This document shows, piece by piece, positions 22,166 to 33,858 of a DNA stretch of 45,311 nucleotides. The number at the start of each line of letters is the position of its first letter. The stretch's first letter is position 1. The notes under the pieces were generated by a model that was not told the DNA's origin, did not search any database, and saw only the letters and a program-made list of their open reading frames with translations. A program made the position numbers and the translations under genes. Origin of the DNA: Acidimicrobiia bacterium (lineage in GTDB: Bacteria > Actinomycetota > Acidimicrobiia > Acidimicrobiales > Ilumatobacteraceae); NCBI GenBank assembly GCA_043744155.1, contig JAYTVF010000423.1, positions 1 to 45,311 on the forward strand, in the 5' to 3' direction.

Positions 22166-22237
22166 GGTCTCCCCCTCGGACGACGATGATTGATAGGTAC
22201 CATATTCGCTTTGTGTGGCGGGTGTCACAATCGTCGA

Positions 22238-22849
22238 ATGACGCAGGGGCCGGGCAGCTGGGAACCGGGAGGGCGTGGGCGGTGTAGAAGTGAGGGAGTG
22301 CTCGATGACGAACTGGTCCGTGCTGCTGCGAGCGGCGATAGGGCGGCCTTTGGCGCGCTCGTTGATCGGCACCGCACGGCGGCCTTGCGAATTGCCTATG
22401 CCATCGCCGATGGGGAAGCGGAGGATGTCGCCCAGGACGCAACCGCGAAAGCGTTCGGGCAGTTCGACCGCTTTGATACGACCCGGCCGTTTCGACCCTG
22501 GTACCTGGCCATCGTCTCGAACGAGGCTCGCAATCGTCGCCGATCATTCCGTCGCCGATCAGCTCTGGTACTGCGGGTGGCGGCAGAGTCATCCACGGCC
22601 AGTGCGGATGATGCGGACGCTGGCGATGCTGCCGAAGCAATTGCACGTACCGAGCGCCGCCAGTACGTGCTGGATGCCATTGCCCGGCTGAACGCCGCCG
22701 ATCGCCAGGTCATCGCGATGCGCTACTTCGCCGAGCTTTCCGAGTCGGAAATGGCAGCGGCCTTGCAGATCGCGCCCGGAACGGTGAAGTCACGACTCTC
22801 ACGAGCGATGGCCCGCTTACGTGCGGCACTGGCGGGTGGGCTGCAATGA
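22238..22849 (+). CDS. ECF RNA polymerase sigma-70 factor
   Basis: ORF track 22190..22849. DDELVRAAASGDRAAFGALVDRH, DVAQDATAKAF, and region 4 VIAMRYFAELSESEMAAALQIAPGTVKSRLSRAMARLR. Start uncertain: TTG 22190, ATG 22238 or GTG 22298. Confidence 0.85.
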   Translation: MTQGPGSWEPGGRGRCRSEGVLDDELVRAAASGDRAAFGALVDRHRTAALRIAYAIADGEAEDVAQDATAKAFGQFDRFDTTRPFRPWYLAIVSNEARNRRRSFRRRSALVLRVAAESSTASADDADAGDAAEAIARTERRQYVLDAIARLNAADRQVIAMRYFAELSESEMAAALQIAPGTVKSRLSRAMARLRAALAGGLQ

Positions 22850-23787
22850 ACCCATTTGACTCGCTCGAAGCCGAACTGATCGACCTCGGTCAGCACTTGG
22901 CCATCGGCCAGCCCGTGGCCATCGGCCAGCCCGTGGAGGTCGGCCAGCCCGTGGGGGTCGGCCAGCACTTGGCCATCGGCCAGCCCGTGGGGGTCGGCCA
23001 GCAGGCAAACTTCGTGACGAGGGCGCCATGGCGTGCCCGACGCCTTCTGCAACTTGCGGCGGCGGTGCTTGTCATCCTGGCAGCGCTGTTGACATTCGGC
23101 CCGACGAGACGGGCCATCGCCAGATTTTTGGGGATCGGCGCCGTCCAAATCCAGTCGGTGCGCACGACCCTGCCAACCTCACCACCAACCACCCGATCCA
23201 GTGCGGCGCGCCCGTCAATCCCGACCGCCGGGTCAACGACCGCCGGGTCAACGACCGCCGGGCCGAGTGTCGTCGGCTCAACGACCGCCGGCTCAACGAC
23301 CGCACAGGGAACGGGGTCCACGGGTTCGGCAATTGGCACTCTGGCGTCTTCGAGCATTCCGGGCTCGGGCGCGAACAGTTCGCCTCAAACGATCAAGATC
23401 ACACCACCATTTCGGGCGCGCATGGCGCCGGATCGACTCATCCGTCAAGAACTCGACCACAGCGTCGGCGCAGGCATGCTGATTCTTAGCTATGAGAAAT
23501 ACACCTTGTTCGAGGTGGCATCGAAGAACTCGACCGTGTTCTTGATGGGAAAATTGCTGCCGCCGAACACCGTGGTGACCTTTACCAAGGTGCGAGGCGT
23601 AGATGCGGTATGGATCAGCGGCGAGCCGCACCAGGTCGTCATGTTCGATGACGACGGCACCTACCGAAGAGACACGGTCCGTACCGTAGGCAACGTGCTG
23701 GTTTGGTACGAGGACGGCGTTACGTTCCGCATCGAGGGCGTCAACAAACTCTCCGATGCGCAAGCAATCGCCGAGTCGCTGCAATAG
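22846..23787 (+). CDS. Single-pass membrane protein in the anti-sigma position, with a DUF4367-like C-terminal domain and two internal tandem repeats
   Basis: Its ATG overlaps the sigma stop (ATGA). TM helix LLQLAAAVLVILAALLTF. The C-terminus VWYEDGVTFRIEGVNKLSDAQAIAESL resembles DUF4367 ends seen in anti-sigma factors. The cytoplasmic N-terminus is mostly GQPV(A/G)(I/V) repeats. Confidence 0.7.
   Translation: MNPFDSLEAELIDLGQHLAIGQPVAIGQPVEVGQPVGVGQHLAIGQPVGVGQQANFVTRAPWRARRLLQLAAAVLVILAALLTFGPTRRAIARFLGIGAVQIQSVRTTLPTSPPTTRSSAARPSIPTAGSTTAGSTTAGPSVVGSTTAGSTTAQGTGSTGSAIGTLASSSIPGSGANSSPQTIKITPPFRARMAPDRLIRQELDHSVGAGMLILSYEKYTLFEVASKNSTVFLMGKLLPPNTVVTFTKVRGVDAVWISGEPHQVVMFDDDGTYRRDTVRTVGNVLVWYEDGVTFRIEGVNKLSDAQAIAESLQ
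22888..23001 (+). repeat. Imperfect 18-nt (hexapeptide GQPVxI/V) tandem repeat, about 6 units, inside a CDS
   Basis: DNA reads ggccagcccgtggccatc / ggccagcccgtggaggtc / ggccagcccgtgggggtc / ggccagcacttggccatc and so on. Peptide: GQHLAIGQPVAIGQPVEVGQPVGVGQHLAIGQPVGVGQQ. Confidence 0.85.
23224..23325 (+). repeat. 15-nt (pentapeptide GSTTA) tandem repeat tract inside a CDS
   Basis: gggtcaacgaccgcc and ggctcaacgaccgcc units. Peptide: AGSTTAGSTTAGPSVVGSTTAGSTTAQGTGSTGS. Confidence 0.8.
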
Positions 23788-23821
23788 GGAACCAGAACGG
23801 ACGGTGCGGTGTAGAGCAGGT

Positions 23822-25015
23822 ATGCGAATATCCGCCGGAATTGCCTGTGCCTTCGTCACCGTTGTCGTGGTCGGCTGCAGTTCGTCCGGGACGACAACCC
23901 GATCCACCACCACGAGCGCTGCCCCCCAAATCTCTCCGTCTACATCGATCGCGCCGCCCGCTGAGGCAGGCGGCGCGCCCTCGTCGGCACCGTCGGCCAG
24001 TCCTTCTCCATCCATCACCGCCTTGCTGGCGGCGACGGCCGACGCAGCGCTCCCCGACGAGCTTTCACCGGCCCTCGGGACATTTGCGGTCGTGCGGGTC
24101 GGTGAGGAGCTACGCGGCGTCGTTCCGGGCCAGCCACCGTTGTGGATTCTCGCCCGCGCAACGGTGGCATTGGATGGATCGGCCGTCGCCGCCACATCGA
24201 TGACCGCCGATGGGTTGTCAGTTGCCGTGTTCGACACTCGCAGCGGCTCTCGACTGGGTGCCTGGGCGTTCGCGCCCGATGCCGAGCTACGTGTCGTGTC
24301 GCCGGCGGGACGGTGGCTGGCTCTCACTCGCCAGGTCGGTTCCCAGACCGAGGTGATGGTGGTCGACTCGCTGCAGGGCACCAAAACGTCGCTGCAGTTC
24401 GAGGGTCGACTGGAGCCGGAGGCCTTCGCTCTCGACGGTAGGTCGGTCGTGGCGCTGGGCTATTTGGCCGACGGGCGTTATCGCGTCCAGACGATCGACC
24501 TCGCCAGCGGGGAGCGCTGGAGCACCAATGACCGCTGGAAGGCGGCCGAGAAGGAGGACATGTCGGGAATACCGGTTCGGGCGGTGATGAACGGGGACCT
24601 GCTGTCCACGCTGTACCGGGATCCCACAAGCACCGCGCATCCGGCCTTCGTGCACACGTTGAACCTGAGCAGCGGGTGGTCACATTGCGCGGATCTTCCG
24701 GCCCCATTCGGCACCGGGCCGGTCGGCTCCGATGCTGTGGTCAATTCAGTCGACGGCAACAAGCTGTACGTGGCCAGTGGCGGTTCGTTCGCCACCATCG
24801 ACGTGGATGCGGTGCGACAGCCGGCTCGCGATGAACACGATGTTGTCGCCATCAGCATCTCGCCGACGCCGCCGATCGACCGTGTGGCGTTTTCCACCCA
24901 CGGCGCGACATGGACGACGAGCGGGCTCGTTTCGCTGCACGATGGAGCGGTCGTTGCCGGGTTGAAATCGACGATCGTCGGGCCAGATGCGCAGCTGATA
25001 GCGGCTCGGGGATAG
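23822..25015 (+). CDS. Lipoprotein, beta-rich (possibly beta-propeller-like), third gene of the ECF module
   Basis: Internal ATG 23822 gives MRISAGIACAFVTVVVVGCSSSG (lipobox VVGC), followed by an S/T/A/P linker and then repetitive beta-strand-like segments. Confidence 0.7.
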   Translation: MRISAGIACAFVTVVVVGCSSSGTTTRSTTTSAAPQISPSTSIAPPAEAGGAPSSAPSASPSPSITALLAATADAALPDELSPALGTFAVVRVGEELRGVVPGQPPLWILARATVALDGSAVAATSMTADGLSVAVFDTRSGSRLGAWAFAPDAELRVVSPAGRWLALTRQVGSQTEVMVVDSLQGTKTSLQFEGRLEPEAFALDGRSVVALGYLADGRYRVQTIDLASGERWSTNDRWKAAEKEDMSGIPVRAVMNGDLLSTLYRDPTSTAHPAFVHTLNLSSGWSHCADLPAPFGTGPVGSDAVVNSVDGNKLYVASGGSFATIDVDAVRQPARDEHDVVAISISPTPPIDRVAFSTHGATWTTSGLVSLHDGAVVAGLKSTIVGPDAQLIAARG

Positions 25016-25082: not shown

Positions 25083-28000
25083 TCAGCGGATCTGAGCCAC
25101 CGACGGATCGAGAGGCCGTGCGGTCAACTTGGCGCAGGGATCCACGGGAGTGCCGCCGAACTGATCGGCCCACTCCGAGGCAGTGAATCCACGGGCGACA
25201 GCCTGGCAGGCCCGCATGATCCAGGCGGTTCCGCCGACGGTCCACGACACGGTGGTGTCGCCCTGAATGGCGACCAGTTGGCCGTTGGTCAGGGTTAGGT
25301 CCGTGATCTGATCGGCCGAGCCAGAGATAAGCGCACCACTCAAGGCCGCGCCGCGCCGGGCGCTCCAGAGGCGCAGGTCGGCATCCTGGCCACCGGTGGC
25401 GATCACATCGTTGTCGAGCCAGGCAATGGCCGAGATCAAATCAGTGTGACCCCGCAGCGTGAACGTCTCCTGCCCGGACGTGACGTTCCAGATCTTTACC
25501 GTTCGATCATCGCTGCCGCTGGCCAACAGCCGACCGTCGGGACTGAATTGCAATGCATCCACAAACAGGTGATGGCCAGCCAGGTCACTTGACCGCCCGC
25601 TGGCGAGATCGAAGAGCTTGATGGGGGAGGCTCGGCCCGGGTGGCCCGGGTCGAGCGCTGCCGTGGCAACCAGCCGGCCATCGGGGCTGATCGCTAAGGC
25701 ACGTATCTGCCCGCCGGCATCATGCAACAGCACTTGCGAGCCGGAGCGCTTCACTAGCACGTCACCATTGTCGAGGCCGAGGGCCACGGTCCCCTCGGCT
25801 GAGGCGGCCAGATCGGTGCCGTTCGTCCCGGTTGGCACAGCCAACAACACGACGTTCGACGCTGAGATCAGGCCTCGCCTCGGATCGAGTCGCACCGGGC
25901 CCGAGGGTGTGGTGATTCGACGTTGTCTACCCCCGGAGGCCCCAATGTCCGAAGGTATGACGCTGGCCAGCGGGGACTGATTGGGAGGCGGCCATGCAAT
26001 GGCGACGCCGTCCTCATCGAGCGTGAGCACCGACCCCTCGGCCGTCGCCTGAATGCTTCGGACCAAGGCATGGTGCGCACGGCGTGGTGAACCCACGACT
26101 GCGCCCGACGGCACGGCGATCTCGACGACATCACCCGAGCGCAGCCCCCCGACGAGTACCTCGGCATTGCGCCAGGCGACGCTGGTCAACAGGATGGGCA
26201 CAATCACCGGTTCGGATCGTCCATCCCAAATGGTCACCGATCCGGTGCCTACTGCGGCGATACGACGTTGTCCCGATATTGTTGCGAGTGCAACCACTGG
26301 GTTGGGGCTTATCGACAGTGGGCCAGCCGTCAGGGCACTGGTCGACGGCGTCCAAAACGCTAGGTCACCCGTATCGGAGCCGAGCGCGACGGTGTCATCA
26401 TCGACCGCAGCGAGAGCGGAGATCGGAACGGCGCCGAACGGTCGCGAGCTTGTCGGCGAGGCGGTAGGGGTCGCCAGCGACCATTGCAGCAGCGTGCCGT
26501 CGGTGGCTGTGGCGAGCAACCAAGACCCGACGACGGCGATGGCCTGCAGGCGAGCCGCGCCGGCCGCGGCAAAGGGCACCCAACCCGGCCCGGCGATGTC
26601 GGCGATGACCAGCTCACCACCTCGGGATCCGCTGATGAGCCGCCCCGATGCCGCATCGACCACCGCCAACTCGTTCACTGCCACGCCGGTGCTGATCGGC
26701 GACGAGGCAGGAGCACCGGTAACGGCGTCGAGCACCTTTACCGTCGGGCTGCCGTCGGCCACGAACACCGTCCGCCGCCCGCCACCGGTGGCCGGGGCGA
26801 TTGCTGCGACGGGTCCCTGCAGGCCAGCCCGTAGATATGTCGAAGGTCCGGGAGCACCGAGAGCGTCCACCAGCGCCGACCAGCTATCGGTGGTGCTCGA
26901 CCGGCGCACACCTTCCAGGGTCAGCAGTAGGGAGAGATCGCGATTCTGCGACGAGGTGGCGCGACCGGCGGCGGCCAGCCGCAAGGTTTGGGCGACCTTG
27001 CGCAGGCTGCGTTCACGGGAACTTTGGCGAACCGCCACCAAGGCCACTGCACCCAGAGCCAGCGTCACGACCAAGAGCGCGGCGAGGCCGCGGCGGATCT
27101 GCTGCAACCGTCGGCTGCGCTCGGCCGTGCTGCGATGCCGATCCATTGATTGGGCCACGAATGCGGTCTCGTCCTCGGTGAGTTGCAGGGTTCGGCGCGT
27201 CACGGCATCGTGTGCCGACTCGACCTGGGTTCCGGACCGCAATGCCTCTGGTGATCGCCCCGATACCACCCACTCGGCGGTGGCTTGGGATATCCACCCT
27301 TGTAACCGTCGGGCCTCGGCGCCCGAACCTTGCAACCAATCAACCGACAGCCGCGGCCATGATCTCAGCAGCGCCTCGTGCACGATCTCGACGGTGGTGT
27401 CGGGATCATCTTTGGCGTGGGTGACGGTGAACAGCCGATAGCCCCGGAAGGTGTCGACGAACCGGGCTGCGCTTGCGAAGGAGGACGACGACAGCTCGGC
27501 CATGGTGGCTCGCCGTCGGGTCGGTTCGAGCCCGATGCCTTGGGTGGTGAGCCGCATCGAAAAGGCCCATTCCGCCAGCTGCCTGTCGCTGTCGTCGAGG
27601 TCGCCGTAGGCCCGCTCAGCCAGACGCTCGAGCGCCTTTTCGACGCCACCCGAGGCGCGATATCCCGCGATCTCCAGTCGGCCCCGATACCGGGCCTCCC
27701 AGGTAGAACGCAGCGCGACGGCCAGCAGCGGTAGGGCACCCGGGGTCGGCGGAATGTCCAGTTGGATCTCCTCGACCAGACCGTTCTCGAGCGTGAGCGA
27801 GGCGGCGCGTGCCGGTCCTTCGATGATTTCTCGCCAATCGGCACGGTCGAGCGGTTGCACTCGAACGAGGTTCGTGTCGATCAGTCGTTGCAGATCCGGG
27901 GCGACGTCAAACGCTGCGCTGACATCGGATCGGAACGACACGATGATGTGGACGAAGCGCTGAGAAGCCACCGCTTCGACAATGGCTGCGGTGACCTCCG

Positions 28001-28433
28001 CGGTCGGTACTCCGGGCAGGAAGATCTGTTCGGCCTGATCGATCCAGACCACCCGGTGTTCGCCGCCGGTGGCCAGCCCGGCCGGTACATCAGCGCGCGG
28101 ATCGAGCTCGATGATGACGCTTCCGGACTCTCGCAGCTCGGGCAGCAAACCGGCTCGGATGAGCGAACTCTTCCCGACTCCGGATGCTCCGACCACGGCG
28201 GTGAAGGGTGTGGTACCGACGCGACGGACGAGTTCCGCGATCTCGTCATCGCGGCCGAAGAGAAAGGCGCGATCTGACTCTCGGAATGGACTCAAGCCGG
28301 GGTAGGGACACGGATCGTTGGGGGTGCGGGTCGGGTCTTCGCGCCCGTACACCACGTCTCGCCCGGCCACCACTGACCCGGTGATGTGAGCCCCGTCTCC
28401 GAAGACTACCGATGAACCGCCGGGCTCAGTCAC
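25083..28433 (-). CDS. NLR-like STAND P-loop NTPase (nSTAND/NACHT-type) with an N-terminal 21-aa coupling motif, a central hydrophobic helix and a C-terminal WD40 beta-propeller region
   Basis: ORF track 1116 aa (GTG start). CPYPGLSPFRESDRAFLFGRDDEI followed by Walker A VVGASGVGKSSL (nt 28167-28190) and Walker B-like VVWIDQAEQ. Hydrophobic helix GLAALLVVTLALGAVALVAV (nt 27030-27089). Clear WD repeats, e.g. LASGSDDRTVKIWNV and GHTDLISAIAW...GGQDADLRLWS. Confidence 0.9.
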   Translation of the reverse strand: MTEPGGSSVVFGDGAHITGSVVAGRDVVYGREDPTRTPNDPCPYPGLSPFRESDRAFLFGRDDEIAELVRRVGTTPFTAVVGASGVGKSSLIRAGLLPELRESGSVIIELDPRADVPAGLATGGEHRVVWIDQAEQIFLPGVPTAEVTAAIVEAVASQRFVHIIVSFRSDVSAAFDVAPDLQRLIDTNLVRVQPLDRADWREIIEGPARAASLTLENGLVEEIQLDIPPTPGALPLLAVALRSTWEARYRGRLEIAGYRASGGVEKALERLAERAYGDLDDSDRQLAEWAFSMRLTTQGIGLEPTRRRATMAELSSSSFASAARFVDTFRGYRLFTVTHAKDDPDTTVEIVHEALLRSWPRLSVDWLQGSGAEARRLQGWISQATAEWVVSGRSPEALRSGTQVESAHDAVTRRTLQLTEDETAFVAQSMDRHRSTAERSRRLQQIRRGLAALLVVTLALGAVALVAVRQSSRERSLRKVAQTLRLAAAGRATSSQNRDLSLLLTLEGVRRSSTTDSWSALVDALGAPGPSTYLRAGLQGPVAAIAPATGGGRRTVFVADGSPTVKVLDAVTGAPASSPISTGVAVNELAVVDAASGRLISGSRGGELVIADIAGPGWVPFAAAGAARLQAIAVVGSWLLATATDGTLLQWSLATPTASPTSSRPFGAVPISALAAVDDDTVALGSDTGDLAFWTPSTSALTAGPLSISPNPVVALATISGQRRIAAVGTGSVTIWDGRSEPVIVPILLTSVAWRNAEVLVGGLRSGDVVEIAVPSGAVVGSPRRAHHALVRSIQATAEGSVLTLDEDGVAIAWPPPNQSPLASVIPSDIGASGGRQRRITTPSGPVRLDPRRGLISASNVVLLAVPTGTNGTDLAASAEGTVALGLDNGDVLVKRSGSQVLLHDAGGQIRALAISPDGRLVATAALDPGHPGRASPIKLFDLASGRSSDLAGHHLFVDALQFSPDGRLLASGSDDRTVKIWNVTSGQETFTLRGHTDLISAIAWLDNDVIATGGQDADLRLWSARRGAALSGALISGSADQITDLTLTNGQLVAIQGDTTVSWTVGGTAWIMRACQAVARGFTASEWADQFGGTPVDPCAKLTARPLDPSVAQIR

Positions 28434-28450
28434 GCCAACTCAACGGATCG

Positions 28451-29317
28451 TCATGTGGCGACGCGCAGCGTATCGGCCAGCGCGAATGCATCCACGTCAT
28501 ACTGCACAGGAGTACCACGGATCGTGCAGGTGGTGCCGTGTCTCAGTACCGTCACGGTAAGGGTGGTCGTGCTCGACAAGCTGGTGTCGCCGCTGCACAC
28601 GTCGTTGTAGACCAGCTCGATAGTGCGATCCTCGTTCACGGTGATGGTGGCGTTGAAGGTGTTGCCGACGACCTTGGCTTTAGGGGCATCGGTCCAAACA
28701 CCACGGGTGATGCGGGCCACCCACGTCACGTCGGTGCCCTGGTCGGGAGCGGCAAGCCAGCCCGTCGGTGGGGCGACGCTCGCTCTGATCCGACAGGTAT
28801 AGCTCGGGTAGGCAATTGCGGTCACGTTGCTCTCGACCGAGGTGCCCTGCAGCGTGCACCCACCCCTTTCGACCTTGATGGTCACCTTGGCGCCACTGAG
28901 GGCCGTGGCGGAGACGACCCCTTTGGCCGACGGGCTCGAGCCGGGCTGGGTGCGCAAAAGGGTAATGGCATCCTGTTTCGCGGCCCCTGCCGTGGTGGCG
29001 ACCGCGGTCGTGCTCGCCTCGATCGTGGTCACTGGGGCTGCGGTCGTGGTTGTCGCCAGCGCGGTGGCAGGCTCTGTCGCGGCGGACGATGTGGCTGACG
29101 GTGCCGTGATTGGCGCCACCGTCTCTGCCAACACCGTCGCCGTCGCGGCCGTCGCAGCGACGGTCGTGCCATCCTCGGGCGAGGTTGTGGCTGGCTTGTC
29201 GACAGAGAATGGTGGGGCATTGCTGCTCGATGATGGTGGGGTCGACGCGCTCGTCGAGCAGCCCGTCGCGCCGAGCGCCAGCGCTCCCAGCATCATCAGC
29301 GATAGGTGCGGCCGCAT
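28451..29317 (-). CDS. Lipoprotein with a T/A/P-rich linker and a six-Cys beta-rich C-terminal domain, encoded between the TIR and STAND genes
   Basis: ORF track 288 aa. MRPHLSLMMLGALALGATGCSTS (lipobox LGATGC). The start shares one nucleotide with the TIR stop (TGATG). The stop is 17 nt before the STAND GTG. Confidence 0.75.
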   Translation of the reverse strand: MRPHLSLMMLGALALGATGCSTSASTPPSSSSNAPPFSVDKPATTSPEDGTTVAATAATATVLAETVAPITAPSATSSAATEPATALATTTTAAPVTTIEASTTAVATTAGAAKQDAITLLRTQPGSSPSAKGVVSATALSGAKVTIKVERGGCTLQGTSVESNVTAIAYPSYTCRIRASVAPPTGWLAAPDQGTDVTWVARITRGVWTDAPKAKVVGNTFNATITVNEDRTIELVYNDVCSGDTSLSSTTTLTVTVLRHGTTCTIRGTPVQYDVDAFALADTLRVAT

Positions 29318-29883
29318 CAGCTTGACCTTCCGACGTCTCGGCCGGCGATAGTCGACCCGCTGATGACGGCACCGTTGCCGATCACGACCGAGGAGTCGAC
29401 GCTCGACGGTGTCGTAACCGGATCTGGCACAGGCGGCGGAGCGACCCGCGCGGCGACCGGCGGCACCGAGGTGGTTGGCCCGCCACCTGCGCCGGAGCCG
29501 GAGAGAGCCAGTCGCGCCTGTACCTGGCTGAGTACATGTCCGAGGGCGTTGTCGGCAAACCAGTTGATGGCGTGCAGGCTGCGGAATCCGAGGGGCAGTT
29601 CGGCGTCGGGGGTCAACAGAATGGAGAGCAGTTTGTTTGATCGTCTGGCAAAGTCGGCCTCGTCGAGCACCCAGTCCGAGTGGGGGCCCTCACCCCAACA
29701 CACGATGATGACGGTGGCCGCCTCCAGACGCTCCTGTATCTCTGCACCGAACCGATCCCCGCCGACCAAGGCCTGATCCCACCACACATGGTGACCAGCG
29801 GCTTGGAGAACCTCGACCAGTACGCGGACTCGCGGTCGGGTTGGCGTGTGATAGCTGACGAAGATGACCGGCGACTCGAGCAT
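29317..29883 (-). CDS. TIR-domain (TIR_2-like) protein with a Pro-rich linker and a C-terminal 21-aa motif shared with the STAND N-terminus
   Basis: ATG 29883 (GTG 29892 also possible; GGGGG upstream). VIFVSYHTPTR...VWWDQALVGGDRFGAEIQERLEAATVIIVCWGEGPHSDWVLDEADFA fits the TIR_2 pattern, including the W-V-x-x-E glutamate. The tail is SSVVIGNGAVISGSTIAGRDVGRSS. Confidence 0.85.
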   Translation of the reverse strand: MLESPVIFVSYHTPTRPRVRVLVEVLQAAGHHVWWDQALVGGDRFGAEIQERLEAATVIIVCWGEGPHSDWVLDEADFARRSNKLLSILLTPDAELPLGFRSLHAINWFADNALGHVLSQVQARLALSGSGAGGGPTTSVPPVAARVAPPPVPDPVTTPSSVDSSVVIGNGAVISGSTIAGRDVGRSS

Positions 29884-30041
29884 GGCGCTCACCCCCAGGT
29901 ACCGCTGTCGTATCGAACCCCACCGACCCTATACGGCCCGGCCTTGGTCAGCATGGCCGCGATGCAGCGCATCGTCAAGGACCGAAACGGTTCGTGTCGA
30001 TACAAGGTGCAGAACGAGAATCCACCAGTAGCCTCACGGGA

Positions 30042-30974: not shown

Positions 30975-31949
30975 ATGCAGCACAGCATGCTTGGCTCCAC
31001 AGATATCGCGGTATCGCGAATCATTCTGGGCTGCGGCAATTTCGGCGGCATCGGCTCGTCCCCGGCCTTCTTTGGTCAAGGCACCGCGCAGGCCGACGCG
31101 TTTGCGCTGATGGATGCCGCGTGGGAGGCAGGCATCACTACCTTCGATACGGCCGACGCCTACGGGGGCGGACGCAGCGAATCGTTCATCGGCGCATGGC
31201 TGGCGTCCAAGCCCTCATCGGTTCGGGATGCGCTTGTTCTCGCGACAAAGACCTACAACCCGATGTTCGAAGGAGCCGACGCCGGTCTTGGTGGTGTTCG
31301 GATACGTCGTCAGATCGACAGCAGCCTTGGTCGGCTCGGCGTGGATCGCGTACCGCTCTACCTTGCTCACGAGTGTGACCCAATGGTGCCGGTGGAAGAA
31401 ACGTTGGCGGCCTTCGATGCGCTCATACACGACGGCAAGGTGGGGGCCGTCGGCGCATCAAACTTCACGACGGATCAACTCGCGGCCTCGTTGGAGGTAT
31501 CGGCGGCCGGCGGTGGCGCCAGGTACGGATGGGTACAGAACTCGTTTTCGCTGCTCGAGCGCGGCGACGAGCGGGGCGTGCTGCCGTTGTGTACGGCCAC
31601 GGGGCTCGGCTACACACCGTTCAGTCCGCTGGCGGGTGGATGGCTCACCGGCAAGTATCGCCGTGATTTCGCACTGCCAGCTGGCTCCCGCATGACCACG
31701 CGACCAGAGCCCTACGAGGCGTACCGCACCGACCAGGTGTACGGAGCGTTGGAAACGTTGCGAGCTCTCGCGGCCGGTGCCGGCTGCAGCATGGCGGCGC
31801 TCTCGCTGGCGTGGGCGCTGGCCCAACCTGGCATCACCGCCATCGTGATCGGCCCCAACCGCGTCGACCAGCTCTCCCCGGCGCTCGAAGCCGTCGACCG
31901 AGCCGTTTCGCCGGACCTGCTCGCCCAGCTTTCGGAGGTGTTTGTATGA
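30975..31949 (+). CDS. Aldo/keto reductase
   Basis: ORF track 324 aa. LGCGNFGG, GITTFDTADAYGGGRSE, and VLATK, GASNF motifs. Confidence 0.9.
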   Translation: MQHSMLGSTDIAVSRIILGCGNFGGIGSSPAFFGQGTAQADAFALMDAAWEAGITTFDTADAYGGGRSESFIGAWLASKPSSVRDALVLATKTYNPMFEGADAGLGGVRIRRQIDSSLGRLGVDRVPLYLAHECDPMVPVEETLAAFDALIHDGKVGAVGASNFTTDQLAASLEVSAAGGGARYGWVQNSFSLLERGDERGVLPLCTATGLGYTPFSPLAGGWLTGKYRRDFALPAGSRMTTRPEPYEAYRTDQVYGALETLRALAAGAGCSMAALSLAWALAQPGITAIVIGPNRVDQLSPALEAVDRAVSPDLLAQLSEVFV

Positions 31950-32911
31950 CCGTTCTCATCCTGTCGGACCGCGACGTGCGCGATCTGCTCGACATGCCGT
32001 CGTGCATCAGCGCGATGGAGGAGGTGTTGGCCGAGCTGGAACGCGGTCTACTTTTCAACCCCTTACGGTTCGTGACCCGACCGCCAGCGGATACCTTCAT
32101 GGGGTTTATGCCGGCCTATCGCGCCGGTGCCGAACCGTTGTATTCACTAAAGGAAGTGGTGATCGCTACGGCGAACCACAACCGCGGCCTCGATTCGCAT
32201 CAGGGAGCGGTGCTGGTGCACGACGGTGTCACCGGCGTGCTGCGCTCCGTGGTGAATGCATCGGCAATCACCGAGATTCGCACCGCAGCCGTGTCTGCGG
32301 TAGCCACGAAGTTGCTGGCCCGATCCGGGGCTGCTTCGGTGGCCATCGTCGGTGCTGGGGTCCAGGCCCGGTCGCATGTGGCGGCCATGCAGGCCTGCTT
32401 TGCGTCCGCGCGAATCACGGTGTGGAGTCGCACCCGAGCCCACGCCGAGGCCCTCGCGGCTGATTCGGGCTGCGAGGTGGCCGACTCGCTCGACGCTGCG
32501 CTACGCGGGGCCGATGTGGTTTGCACCACAACGTCATCTCGCGAGCCCATCATCACCCGCGCCATGCTGTCGCCTGGCACGCACTACAACGCAGTGGGTT
32601 CGTCCATCGCTGCGGCCCGCGAGTTCGACGCCGAGGCGATGGCGGCCGTTTCATTGTTTGTCGATCGGCGCGAATCGACGCTGAACGAATCGGGCGATTA
32701 CCTCGATGCGGCGCGTGAGGTCGGCATCGGCCCCTCGCACATCCGAGCCGAGTTGGGCGAGTTACTGATCGGCGCTCATCCCGGTCGCGTCGATGATCAG
32801 GAGATGACGCTGTTCAAATCTCTCGGCATCGCAGTGGAAGATCTGGCCGCCGCTGAATTGTGCATCCGGCGTGCCCGCGAGCGTGGCGTCGGCACGGAGG
32901 CCGCGTGGTGA
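31946..32911 (+). CDS. Ornithine cyclodeaminase/mu-crystallin family NAD-dependent enzyme
   Basis: ATG 31946 overlaps the AKR stop (ATGA). MTVLILSDRDVRDLLDM..., ITEIRTAAVSAVATKLLAR, VAIVGAGVQARSH (Rossmann). Confidence 0.9.
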   Translation: MTVLILSDRDVRDLLDMPSCISAMEEVLAELERGLLFNPLRFVTRPPADTFMGFMPAYRAGAEPLYSLKEVVIATANHNRGLDSHQGAVLVHDGVTGVLRSVVNASAITEIRTAAVSAVATKLLARSGAASVAIVGAGVQARSHVAAMQACFASARITVWSRTRAHAEALAADSGCEVADSLDAALRGADVVCTTTSSREPIITRAMLSPGTHYNAVGSSIAAAREFDAEAMAAVSLFVDRRESTLNESGDYLDAAREVGIGPSHIRAELGELLIGAHPGRVDDQEMTLFKSLGIAVEDLAAAELCIRRARERGVGTEAAW

Positions 32912-33858
32912 TCCCGCTCGAAGAAATCGAAGCGGCTCGACTGCGGATCGCTGACGTCGCGGTACGCACCCCGCTGATCCGACTGTATGCCCCGGAATCG
33001 CCTGCCGAGATCTGGCTCAAACTTGAATGCCTGCAGCCCATCGGCGCATTCAAGATACGGGGGGCGGCCAACGCCATGCGTACAGCACCAGAGGCGGCGT
33101 TGTCTCACGGGGCGTGGACGACCAGCGCCGGCAACATGGCCCAGGGTGTGGCCTGGATGGCGCGCGAGATGGGCATTCCCTCCGCCGTAGTCGTGCCTGA
33201 TCACGCGCCGTCGGGAAAATTGGACGCCATCGAGCGGCTGGGCGGTCGGGTCATCAAGGTGCCGTTCGACCGCTGGTGGCAAGCCATGGTGGAAGGTGAG
33301 TATCCCGGTGTAGAAGGGCATTTCGTCCACCCGGTGCAAGACGATGCAGTGATGGCCGGGAACGGCACCATTGGGCTTGAACTGGCCGAAGACCTCGATG
33401 ACATCGATGGCGTGCTCGTGCCGTGGGGCGGCGGTGGTTTGGCCACTGGTATCGCCAGCGCGCTTCACGCCCGTAGCCCGCACACCAAGGTGTACTCATG
33501 CGAACCGGCCAGCGGTGCACCGATGCATGCGTCATGGGCGGCGGGTACGCCCGTCGGCGTCGACTTTGCCCCTTCCTTCGTGGACGGTTCGGGCAGTAAG
33601 AGCCTGCTGCCCGCCATGTGGGAACGGGCGCGGCCGCTGCTGTCGGGCACCTTCGCCCCGTCGTTGGATGACACCGCGGCCGCCGTTCGGGTGCTGGCCA
33701 CGCGCGCTCGCGTCGTGGCCGAAGGCGCCGGCGCATTGTCCGTCGCCGCAGCGTTGTCCGGCGGCGCAGGCTCAGGCCGCCTCGTGTGCATCGTGTCCGG
33801 CGGCAACATCGACGCCGCCAAACTCGCCACCATCCTACAAGGCGGCACTCCCGGCTGA
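32908..33858 (+). CDS. PLP-dependent threonine/serine dehydratase-family enzyme (fold type II)
   Basis: GTG 32908 overlaps the OCD stop (GTGA). LQPIGAFKIRGAANAM carries the PLP-lysine context. GGGGL loop. C-terminal IVSGGNID. Confidence 0.9.
   Translation: MIPLEEIEAARLRIADVAVRTPLIRLYAPESPAEIWLKLECLQPIGAFKIRGAANAMRTAPEAALSHGAWTTSAGNMAQGVAWMAREMGIPSAVVVPDHAPSGKLDAIERLGGRVIKVPFDRWWQAMVEGEYPGVEGHFVHPVQDDAVMAGNGTIGLELAEDLDDIDGVLVPWGGGGLATGIASALHARSPHTKVYSCEPASGAPMHASWAAGTPVGVDFAPSFVDGSGSKSLLPAMWERARPLLSGTFAPSLDDTAAAVRVLATRARVVAEGAGALSVAAALSGGAGSGRLVCIVSGGNIDAAKLATILQGGTPG

Follow-up and report, generated by a model that had tools for sequence, protein, structure and literature searches.

We analysed a stretch of 45,311 nucleotides from an Acidimicrobiia bacterium of the Ilumatobacteraceae (GenBank assembly GCA_043744155.1, contig JAYTVF010000423.1, positions 1 to 45,311 of the forward strand), hereafter called the window, and examined a cassette of three tightly packed genes on its minus strand. 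In the order of transcription, the 4.8-kb cassette encodes a TIR effector (29317..29883), a lipoprotein of 288 amino acids (28451..29317), and a STAND protein of 1116 amino acids (25083..28433) that combines an N-terminal motif, an nSTAND1 NTPase, a predicted transmembrane helix, and a beta-propeller region. The ATG of the lipoprotein gene overlaps the stop codon of the TIR gene in the sequence TGATG, and the STAND gene starts 17 nt past the lipoprotein stop codon. A preliminary description of this DNA had claimed three packed minus-strand genes with these junctions, and all three open reading frames (ORFs), the overlap, and the gap were found as it gave them. Its assignment of TIR, lipoprotein, and STAND-WD40 identities also agreed with our matches to Pfam TIR_2, a lipobox, nSTAND1, and WD40-type propellers. 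The G+C content at the third codon position was 0.74-0.80 in the frames of all three genes, and homologues elsewhere were found for each of the three proteins, indicating that these are real genes and not chance ORFs in GC-rich DNA. Promoter and terminator scans of the cassette were uninformative in such DNA. The G+C content of the window is about 64%, and the surroundings of the cassette consist of ordinary chromosomal genes for metabolism and transport, including F420/LLM-type and mycothiol-related genes. Together with the style of the lipoprotein linker, these traits suggest an actinomycetotal origin. Two features go beyond the preliminary description, namely a motif common to the TIR C-terminus and the STAND N-terminus, and a hydrophobic helix in the STAND protein.

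The TIR gene most likely starts at the ATG at 29883, which gives a protein of 188 amino acids. An ORF opening with GTG reaches 29892, and the ATG is preferred because the orthologues start with MLESP and a purine-rich stretch lies just upstream. TIR_2 was the sole Pfam family matched by the protein (E = 3.8e-15, 56.9 bits), and the domain spans 29551..29865 on the minus strand, with the putative catalytic Glu75 in the motif SDWVLDE encoded at 29659-29661. The preliminary description had singled out the glutamate of a WVxxE context, and E75 of WVLDE proved to be invariant in the TIR alignment, where it aligns with the motif glutamates of SARM1 (WVHKE), AbTIR, PdTIR, and Cat1. The aligned residue of SARM1 is E642, the catalytic residue of that enzyme. 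From this alignment, the TIR protein is predicted to be an NAD-cleaving enzyme. Among 5.8 billion clustered proteins, only two close homologues were found, the orthologues P0002 and P0003, which are 76-77% identical to the window protein. Searches of NCBIfam and PHROGs with the TIR protein gave no matches.

The lipoprotein gene encodes a signal peptide (MRPHLSLMMLGALALGATG, directly before Cys20) with an LGATGC lipobox read from the sequence (29258-29317), a Ser/Thr/Pro/Ala-rich linker of about 105 residues (28943-29257), and an all-beta C-terminal domain of about 165 residues with four cysteines (28454-28942), all on the minus strand. Lipoboxes are present likewise in L001, L002, L004, L005, L006, and L007, which are contigs carrying related loci. 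An exhaustive HMMER search showed that the C-terminal domain belongs to a small family (P0084, P0085, P0089, and P0090) with the same lipobox-linker-domain build, across which the four cysteines are invariant. These four cysteines together with the lipobox indicate an extracytoplasmic, membrane-tethered protein. The AlphaFold2 model of the lipoprotein was all-beta and Ig-like with a pLDDT confidence value of 70, rising to about 90 in the second half, and comparison with the PDB gave generic Ig-like structural neighbours only, none of them at E ≤0.001. A k-mer-prefiltered search with the whole lipoprotein returned the query itself as the sole match, the low-complexity linker having probably swamped the candidates, and NCBIfam and PHROGs held no matches.

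In the STAND protein, residues 43-395 (27249..28307, minus strand) form an nSTAND1 module. The match to Pfam PF20703 (E = 1.4e-80, 272 bits against a cut-off of 27.1) covers profile positions 1-378 of 379, and the module contains the Walker A motif GASGVGKSS (28164-28190) and the Walker B motif VVWIDQAE (28029-28052). WD40 and beta-propeller models match residues ~624-1068. The homologues of the NTPase carry varied N-terminal modules, including SARP or helix-turn-helix (HTH) DNA-binding domains, kinases, TIR, FGE, effector-associated domains (EADs), and caspase. Many of the homologues P0007-P0012, P0018, P0031, P0036, P0039, and P0048 consist of an N-terminal SARP/BTAD or XRE HTH domain, nSTAND1, and a single transmembrane segment, a build that suggests membrane-tethered transcription regulators. 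In addition, residues 181-460 match phrog_923, a family of unknown function (E = 3.1e-33), indicating that phage-encoded relatives of the NTPase exist.

The hydrophobic helix lies between the NTPase and the repeat region, at residues 449-468 (GLAALLVVTLALGAVALVAV; 27030..27089, minus strand). It consists of 20 uncharged residues, with hydropathy averaging 2.82 on the Kyte-Doolittle scale over 19 residues, and no other segment of the protein is of this kind; the position of the helix is kept in L007 and in most nSTAND1 homologues, with values of 2.3-2.8 over 19 residues across the family. The region that follows (residues 469-1116; 25086..27029) comprises a helical linker, propeller repeats with canonical WD40 near residues 876-1068, and a C-terminal tail with a conserved cysteine pair, C1076 and C1100 (25134-25208). 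A cytoplasmic N-terminus of the STAND protein follows from the ATP requirement of the NTPase and from the absence of a signal peptide in the TIR partner, and a single transmembrane helix after such an N-terminus would place the propeller region outside, in the same compartment as the lipoprotein. When lysine and arginine residues flanking the helix were counted in 43 nSTAND1 proteins, the N-flank exceeded the C-flank in 34 and the reverse was found in 3, with means of 5.2 and 2.8, respectively. Based on these observations, we suggest that the STAND protein is probably a single-pass membrane protein with outward propellers, not a cytosolic NLR, which would give a rationale for a secreted protein encoded between the TIR protein and the NTPase. 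The cysteine pair of the tail fits extracytoplasmic propellers without proving them. A single-sequence AlphaFold2 model of the post-helix region had a pLDDT of 37.6, too low for counting the propellers. That STAND conflict systems may include periplasmic sensor domains was suggested in earlier literature.

The TIR and STAND proteins share a 21-residue motif, SSVxIxGxAxVxxSxIAGRDV. It lies within the C-terminal 25 residues of the TIR protein (SSVVIGNGAVISGSTIAGRDV; 29332..29394, minus strand) and at residues 7-27 of the STAND protein (SSVVFGDGAHITGSVVAGRDV; 28353..28415, minus strand), and the two copies are identical at 15 of 21 positions (E = 4e-5 in a two-sequence BLASTP). The TIR tail reads SSVVIGNGAVISGSTIAGRDVGRSS, and the STAND protein starts with MTEPGG-SSVVFGDGAHITGSVVAGRDV. 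In six-frame translations of the window, the motif occurs at these two sites only. In L007, the corresponding effector and STAND motifs are identical at 13 of 23 positions (E = 6e-4), and every triad has the motif at both the effector C-terminus and the STAND N-terminus, L005, L006, and L007 included. The consensus is S-S-V-[VT]-I-G-G-x-A-x-[IV]-x-x-S-x-[IV]-A-G-R-D-[VI], with V3, A9, S14, and A17 invariant, and as a regular expression it matched only effector C-termini and STAND N-termini in six-frame translations of about 144 kb. In P0002 and P0003, the Pro/Gly-rich linker before the motif diverges and the motif itself is kept. The motif is rich in S, V, G, I, and A, contains no P or K, and shows hydrophobic runs punctuated by glycine, a composition broadly in line with the bias reported for BASS motifs. 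A Pfam scan of the isolated motif peptides from both termini found no family, and no hexapeptide or EAD domain; a match to a beta-solenoid repeat model stayed below threshold (E = 0.044). Pair-specific co-variation of the motif was considered and dropped, as it was not clearly seen in the motif comparison. At the C-terminus of P0002 (L001 7734-7850), a tandem expansion (GRDVGRDVGRDLGRDVGRDLGQSS) comes after the TIR motif and resembles a slippage product of the motif's GRDV end.

The order effector-lipoprotein-nSTAND1 recurs in four divergent metagenomic lineages, with reading frames that overlap or lie 8-17 nt apart. The complete triad of L007-L011 has the same gene order and overlapping reading frames, and its TIR_2 effector, lipoprotein, and full-length nSTAND1-transmembrane-WD40 protein are 48%, 31%, and 50% identical to their window counterparts, respectively. 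In L005, the effector head is DUF4062 (Pfam E = 1.7e-7) and the tail is the same motif; the lipoprotein gene is present, and the STAND protein starts with ...SRVTIDGSATIASSYIAGRDL...CPYPGL before the contig ends. L006 holds a C-terminal effector fragment resembling that of L005, the lipoprotein gene, and an N-terminal STAND fragment. Both L005 and L006 have an overlap between the effector and lipoprotein frames, and their STAND genes begin after a gap of 8-9 nt. The orthologous contigs L001-L003 share the left-hand synteny and break off inside the lipoprotein gene after its start, and on L004 (1.2 kb) the lipoprotein gene is apparently alone, with no effector or STAND gene seen. Co-conservation of the triad, which the preliminary description had named as a check, is thus found with the same order and tight coupling in L007-L011 and partly in L005 and L006. 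What flanks the triad varies from lineage to lineage, and the three genes therefore form a conserved unit; sequence comparison indicates that the cassette is a rare but conserved three-gene bacterial unit. In a scan of metagenome contigs with the STAND alignment, one non-triad relative was found, L013, a solo nSTAND1-transmembrane-WD40 protein with a different N-terminal motif, and a degenerate pattern for the subfamily-specific EPTRRRATMAEL had no match in genome contigs.

The effector heads differ between these lineages and the motif tail is kept. DUF4062 has been described as a TIR-like NADase in antiphage abortive infection (two 2026 preprints; Swarozyc and Evangelion). The swap of TIR_2 and DUF4062 heads with the motif retained implies that the conserved property of the first gene is an NADase head plus a motif tail. 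A variant of the L007 cassette, L009, which is otherwise >99.8% identical, carries two lesions in one sample: a C>A change at L007 position 1045 that makes a stop codon in the TIR gene directly before the C-terminal motif, and a 64-bp frameshifting deletion within the nSTAND1 NTPase (L007 positions 2554-2617). It is either a natural loss-of-function variant, which would hint at a cost or toxicity of the cassette, or an assembly artefact.

The place of the lipoprotein gene bears on a rival explanation, in which the STAND protein is a cytosolic or peripheral NLR-like sensor and the lipoprotein gene is an unrelated passenger between the two partners. Published motif-coupled pairs are normally adjacent, 57% of them within 10 bp (Dyrka et al. 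2020, bioRxiv 10.1101/2020.01.06.895854), and the solitary homologue on L004 and the weak charge bias of the helix in this subfamily would also suit a passenger. However, the lipoprotein gene keeps its position, strand, and translational coupling in four lineages despite about 30% identity and different flanks, and the strongly hydrophobic segment of the STAND protein is conserved across the family. Because a passenger gene would not survive such divergence in place, we regard this explanation as very unlikely.

The motif common to the effector C-terminus and the NTPase N-terminus puts the locus in the described class of motif-coupled effector/NLR pairs (Dyrka et al. 2020). In the Bell/BASS1-10 pairs of that study, a motif of about 21-25 residues lies at the effector C-terminus and the NLR N-terminus, TIR2 is among the non-Bell effectors, and 'all-in-one' fused counterparts exist. 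The cassette resembles these pairs in its short terminal motif, its collinear close genes, and a STAND/NLR protein with WD or TPR repeats. It differs from them in several respects. First, its NTPase is nSTAND1, whereas their screen covered NACHT and NB-ARC. Second, the effector and STAND genes, on the same strand and 0.9 kb apart, inside the 5-kb limit for linked pairs, have the gap between them filled by the conserved lipoprotein gene, and a transmembrane helix separates the NTPase from the repeats. Third, the motif core IAGRD/VAGRD is missing from Table S2 of that study, and the motif looks like a family absent from the published BASS table. Antiphage abortive infection through an amyloid motif pair has been shown in E. 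coli for Bab/Agp (BASS11), in which single beta-breaker mutations are reported to abolish signalling, and BASS11 also adjoins TIR, CHAT, NACHT, and NB-ARC. As in fungal HET-S/NWD2 and in Bab/Agp, a receptor N-terminal motif would template an effector C-terminal motif upon activation. In those two systems, however, the effectors are pore-forming HeLo or Bell-like, whereas those of the cassette are predicted NADases, and a lipoprotein and a membrane-spanning receptor are absent from both. Moreover, Agp is not a STAND protein, and Q92, D99, and N100 of Bab are unmatched in the cassette motif.

A classical Bell-type pair that includes an nSTAND1 protein was found at another locus. At L014 4569-7355, a HetE-N protein of 135 amino acids adjoins the nSTAND1-transmembrane-WD40 protein P0027, and this pair shares ...GG[VI]QGVAGA..V.I... 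at the C- and N-termini. The HetE-N/Bell-type protein ends with ...GGVVQGVAGAENVQIGSMTFG and its neighbour begins with ...GGQIQGVAGAGTVHIENFTIYN; in longer form, the tail reads ...MSGGVVQGVAGAENVQIGSMTFG and the start of P0027 reads ...VTGGQIQGVAGAGTVHIENFTIYN. Integrases and a resolvase flank the pair. Fused proteins with the order TIR-nSTAND1-transmembrane-WD40 also exist, namely P0077, from an Acidobacteria metagenome-assembled genome, and P0022, P0071, P0074, and P0082. They share with the cassette the domain order, including the hydrophobic helix after the NTPase, and differ in having no adjacent lipoprotein of the cassette's family; as the effector is covalently attached, a coupling motif would be unnecessary in them. 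The L014 pair and the fused P0077 imply that nSTAND1 proteins take part in such pairs. Similar Gly-rich motifs stand at the start of the nSTAND1 homologues P0028, P0030, P0033, P0037, P0041, P0042, and P0051. The P0077 gene (L015 4001-10637) lies a few kb from a pair of PALP and ornithine-cyclodeaminase genes, and the same two families flank the cassette in the window (31811-33858) in a different order, a recurrence that may be a coincidence.

The shared segment could also be an ordinary homotypic docking peptide of the kind known from the EAD principle, which would recruit the TIR protein stoichiometrically to oligomerised STAND protein by beta-strand pairing without self-propagating amyloid templating. 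The EAD principle, in which the same small module is present on the effector and the NTPase, covers nSTAND1 conflict systems (Kaur et al.), enforced proximity suffices for TIR activation according to a review, and the motif has neither the N/Q content common in BASS motifs nor a place in the BASS1-10 table. Yet no Pfam EAD match was found in the TIR protein or among the best 25 STAND matches, the motif peptides matched no Pfam family, and a stretch of 21 residues could not form a globular adaptor domain on its own. The length, the terminal position, the hydrophobic pattern punctuated by glycine, and the gene arrangement are traits of amyloid signalling motifs, and the nSTAND1 protein with a Bell-type partner has the classical arrangement. 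Taken together, docking without templating seems unlikely to us, though it is a serious contender.

Based on these observations, we lean somewhat towards the reading that the cassette is a self-contained three-gene signalling and cell-suicide unit of the motif-coupled effector/NLR kind that acts in an outside-in chain. The STAND protein would be the sensor, with its N-terminal motif and nSTAND1 module in the cytoplasm and its propellers beyond the membrane. The lipoprotein would sit on the outer face of the membrane via its long linker, and its disulfide-type Ig-like domain would partner the propellers as a co-sensor, a presenter, or a restraining ligand. An event outside, such as envelope attack, phage contact, or a foreign cell, would alter the state of the propellers and the lipoprotein and lead to NTP-dependent oligomerisation of the cytoplasmic NTPase. 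Oligomerisation would cluster the N-terminal motifs into a beta-rich seed, which would template or recruit the C-terminal motif of the free TIR or DUF4062 protein in the manner of BASS and HET-s. The clustered TIR domains would then become active NADases, and depletion of NAD+ would end in growth arrest or death. A more specific version, which we put forward tentatively as possible rather than probable, is an outside-in immune or allorecognition receptor in which a propeller with an Ig-like lipoprotein co-receptor signals through a transmembrane STAND protein and prion-like motif templating to a free cytosolic NADase. Its logic would be like that of a Toll-like receptor plus co-receptor, built from NLR and amyloid-signalling parts.

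A same-operon lipoprotein that acts on the extracytoplasmic domain of a membrane sensor is known from actinobacteria in LpqB and the MtrB kinase. In that case, unlike in the cassette, a histidine kinase is the sensor and a response regulator gives the output, and we know of no sequence relationship between LpqB/MtrB and the cassette.

The trigger may also come from cells rather than from phages. Under such an alternative, the cassette would be an envelope-surveillance, developmental, or kin/non-self module and not an antiviral one; the propeller would read a polymorphic lipoprotein, as in HET-E/HET-C and HET-S/NWD2, and mismatched cells would be arrested or killed by NAD+ depletion. Between the window and L007, the lipoprotein has diverged faster than its partners (31% against 48-50% identity), and it and the sensor are both predicted to be extracellular. 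The chromosomal context without a defence island and the concentration of nSTAND1 relatives in filamentous or multicellular Actinobacteria and Cyanobacteria, which is in line with the literature, point the same way. Allelic polymorphism, however, would be hypothetical, with one or two sequences per lineage, and the TIR and DUF4062 NADases documented so far come mainly from antiphage abortive infection. The present data fit a phage and a cellular trigger alike, and we consider a purely non-antiviral role improbable.

Here, we need to consider several points that weigh against a motif-coupled, outside-in cassette. All evidence on the function of the cassette is sequence-based. Concerning the membrane topology, canonical GH-WD repeats are typical of cytosolic proteins, and the lysine/arginine flank bias is weak in this subfamily, at 6 versus 5 in the window and 4 versus 5 in L007. 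Concerning the motif, it is nearly devoid of N and Q, the core strings IAGRD and VAGRD do not occur in Table S2 (BASS1-10) of Dyrka et al. 2020, and its likeness to BASS1 (SGSARIYQAGRDQHI), compared by eye, is limited to SGS..I..AGRD with an indel. It also has no counterparts of the residues named as conserved in BASS11, and motif similarity within pairs is not consistently above that between loci. Given the low N/Q content, the absence from the BASS table, and the unmatched BASS11 residues, amyloid formation by this motif would be an analogy. Concerning distribution, the four lineages known are all metagenomic and two of them lie on truncated contigs; patterns derived from the STAND protein found no relatives in GTDB representative genomes or viral contigs, the lipoprotein domain had no match in a plasmid collection, and P0084 on L004, the most similar lipoprotein apart from the orthologues, seems to stand alone. 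Finally, no defence island or mobile element was seen in the neighbourhood within the window, and PADLOC returned no system-level hit for the cassette.

The preliminary description had placed the layout outside the named defence systems, and this was borne out, as PADLOC-DB gave no named system and signatures of ThsA, a cyclase, NACHT, and Avs were absent. Thoeris, in which the TIR protein ThsB goes with ThsA (SIR2 or Macro plus SLOG), was ruled out, with no ThsA-like gene in the cassette or its flanks and no PADLOC Thoeris hit. Avs/AVAST, whose STAND NTPase has a fused N-terminal effector and a cytosolic sensor, was likewise ruled out, as PADLOC-DB gave no match to an Avs model and nothing beyond weak P-loop similarity to mad3 and mad8. 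As for bNACHT, NACHT (PF05729) was not among the best 25 of 39 Pfam matches, and nSTAND1 covers the NTPase with 272 bits. A CBASS effector was excluded because there is no cyclase and no PADLOC system. Thoeris, Avs/AVAST, bNACHT, and CBASS-TIR systems cause abortive infection by means of a TIR NADase, a STAND NTPase that carries a repeat sensor, or both, components with counterparts in the cassette. The cassette differs from them in that its effector is a separate polypeptide and its sensor is predicted to be extracytoplasmic. The DUF4062 systems Swarozyc and Evangelion have the DUF4062 head seen in L005 and L006, with an NADase activated by assembly and abortive infection as the outcome, but they are single proteins with their own sensors, whereas DUF4062 in L005 and L006 is part of a small free motif-bearing protein within a triad.

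The closest relationship on the NTPase side is with the nSTAND1/EAD systems (Kaur, Burroughs, Iyer, Aravind 2020, 2021), which share the PF20703 clade and the principle of variable effectors (TIR, caspase, kinase, and others) placed on a constant STAND core via a small module. They differ in that both of their partners carry an EAD1-11 or Death-like adaptor domain, whereas the common element of the cassette is a 21-residue peptide. No EAD family was found on the TIR protein or among the best 25 of 39 Pfam matches for the STAND protein. In full-text searches of the literature, including the nSTAND1/EAD texts, we found neither the triad nor its distinctive elements, which are the lipoprotein inserted between the partners, the STAND protein that spans the membrane, and the 21-residue motif.

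The cassette is best filed as a member of the motif-coupled, amyloid-signalling type of effector/STAND class, to which it would add a probable extracytoplasmic sensing arm made of propellers and a lipoprotein. With it, this type of motif coupling also takes in the nSTAND1 clade, NADase heads that can be either TIR or DUF4062, and an apparent motif family beyond the published BASS table. Avs and bNACHT have been described as cytoplasmic sensors, and a STAND protein in the membrane that has its own lipoprotein would suggest cell-surface surveillance, in which detection before or at phage entry, or of other cells, would be linked to an NADase suicide effector. If the outside-in reading is true, the cassette would represent a STAND/NLR system that senses the outside of the cell together with a new amyloid-signalling motif family. 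The small 4.8-kb size and the available handles, which are E75, the Walker A lysine, prolines introduced into the motif, the lipobox cysteine, and deletion of the lipoprotein, make the model directly testable.

Some neighbouring genes were also noted. On L001 (769-2928), about 4-6 kb from the orthologous cassette, there are a DDE transposase fragment and a pair consisting of an AAA_15/AAA_21 ATPase and DUF4276, and neither is present on the corresponding side of the window. On the plus strand of the window (22190-25015), three genes encode an extracytoplasmic function (ECF) sigma factor (Pfam Sigma70_r2/r4), a 313-aa protein, and a 419-aa lipoprotein-like protein with the lipobox VVVGC, the last of them encoded convergently with the 3' end of the STAND gene. 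The 313-aa protein, possibly an anti-sigma factor, combines a transmembrane helix with GQPV-type hexapeptide repeats that run along its N-terminal part. These three genes were rejected as part of the cassette since they are not conserved beside the L007 cassette, and the group is probably a separate module.

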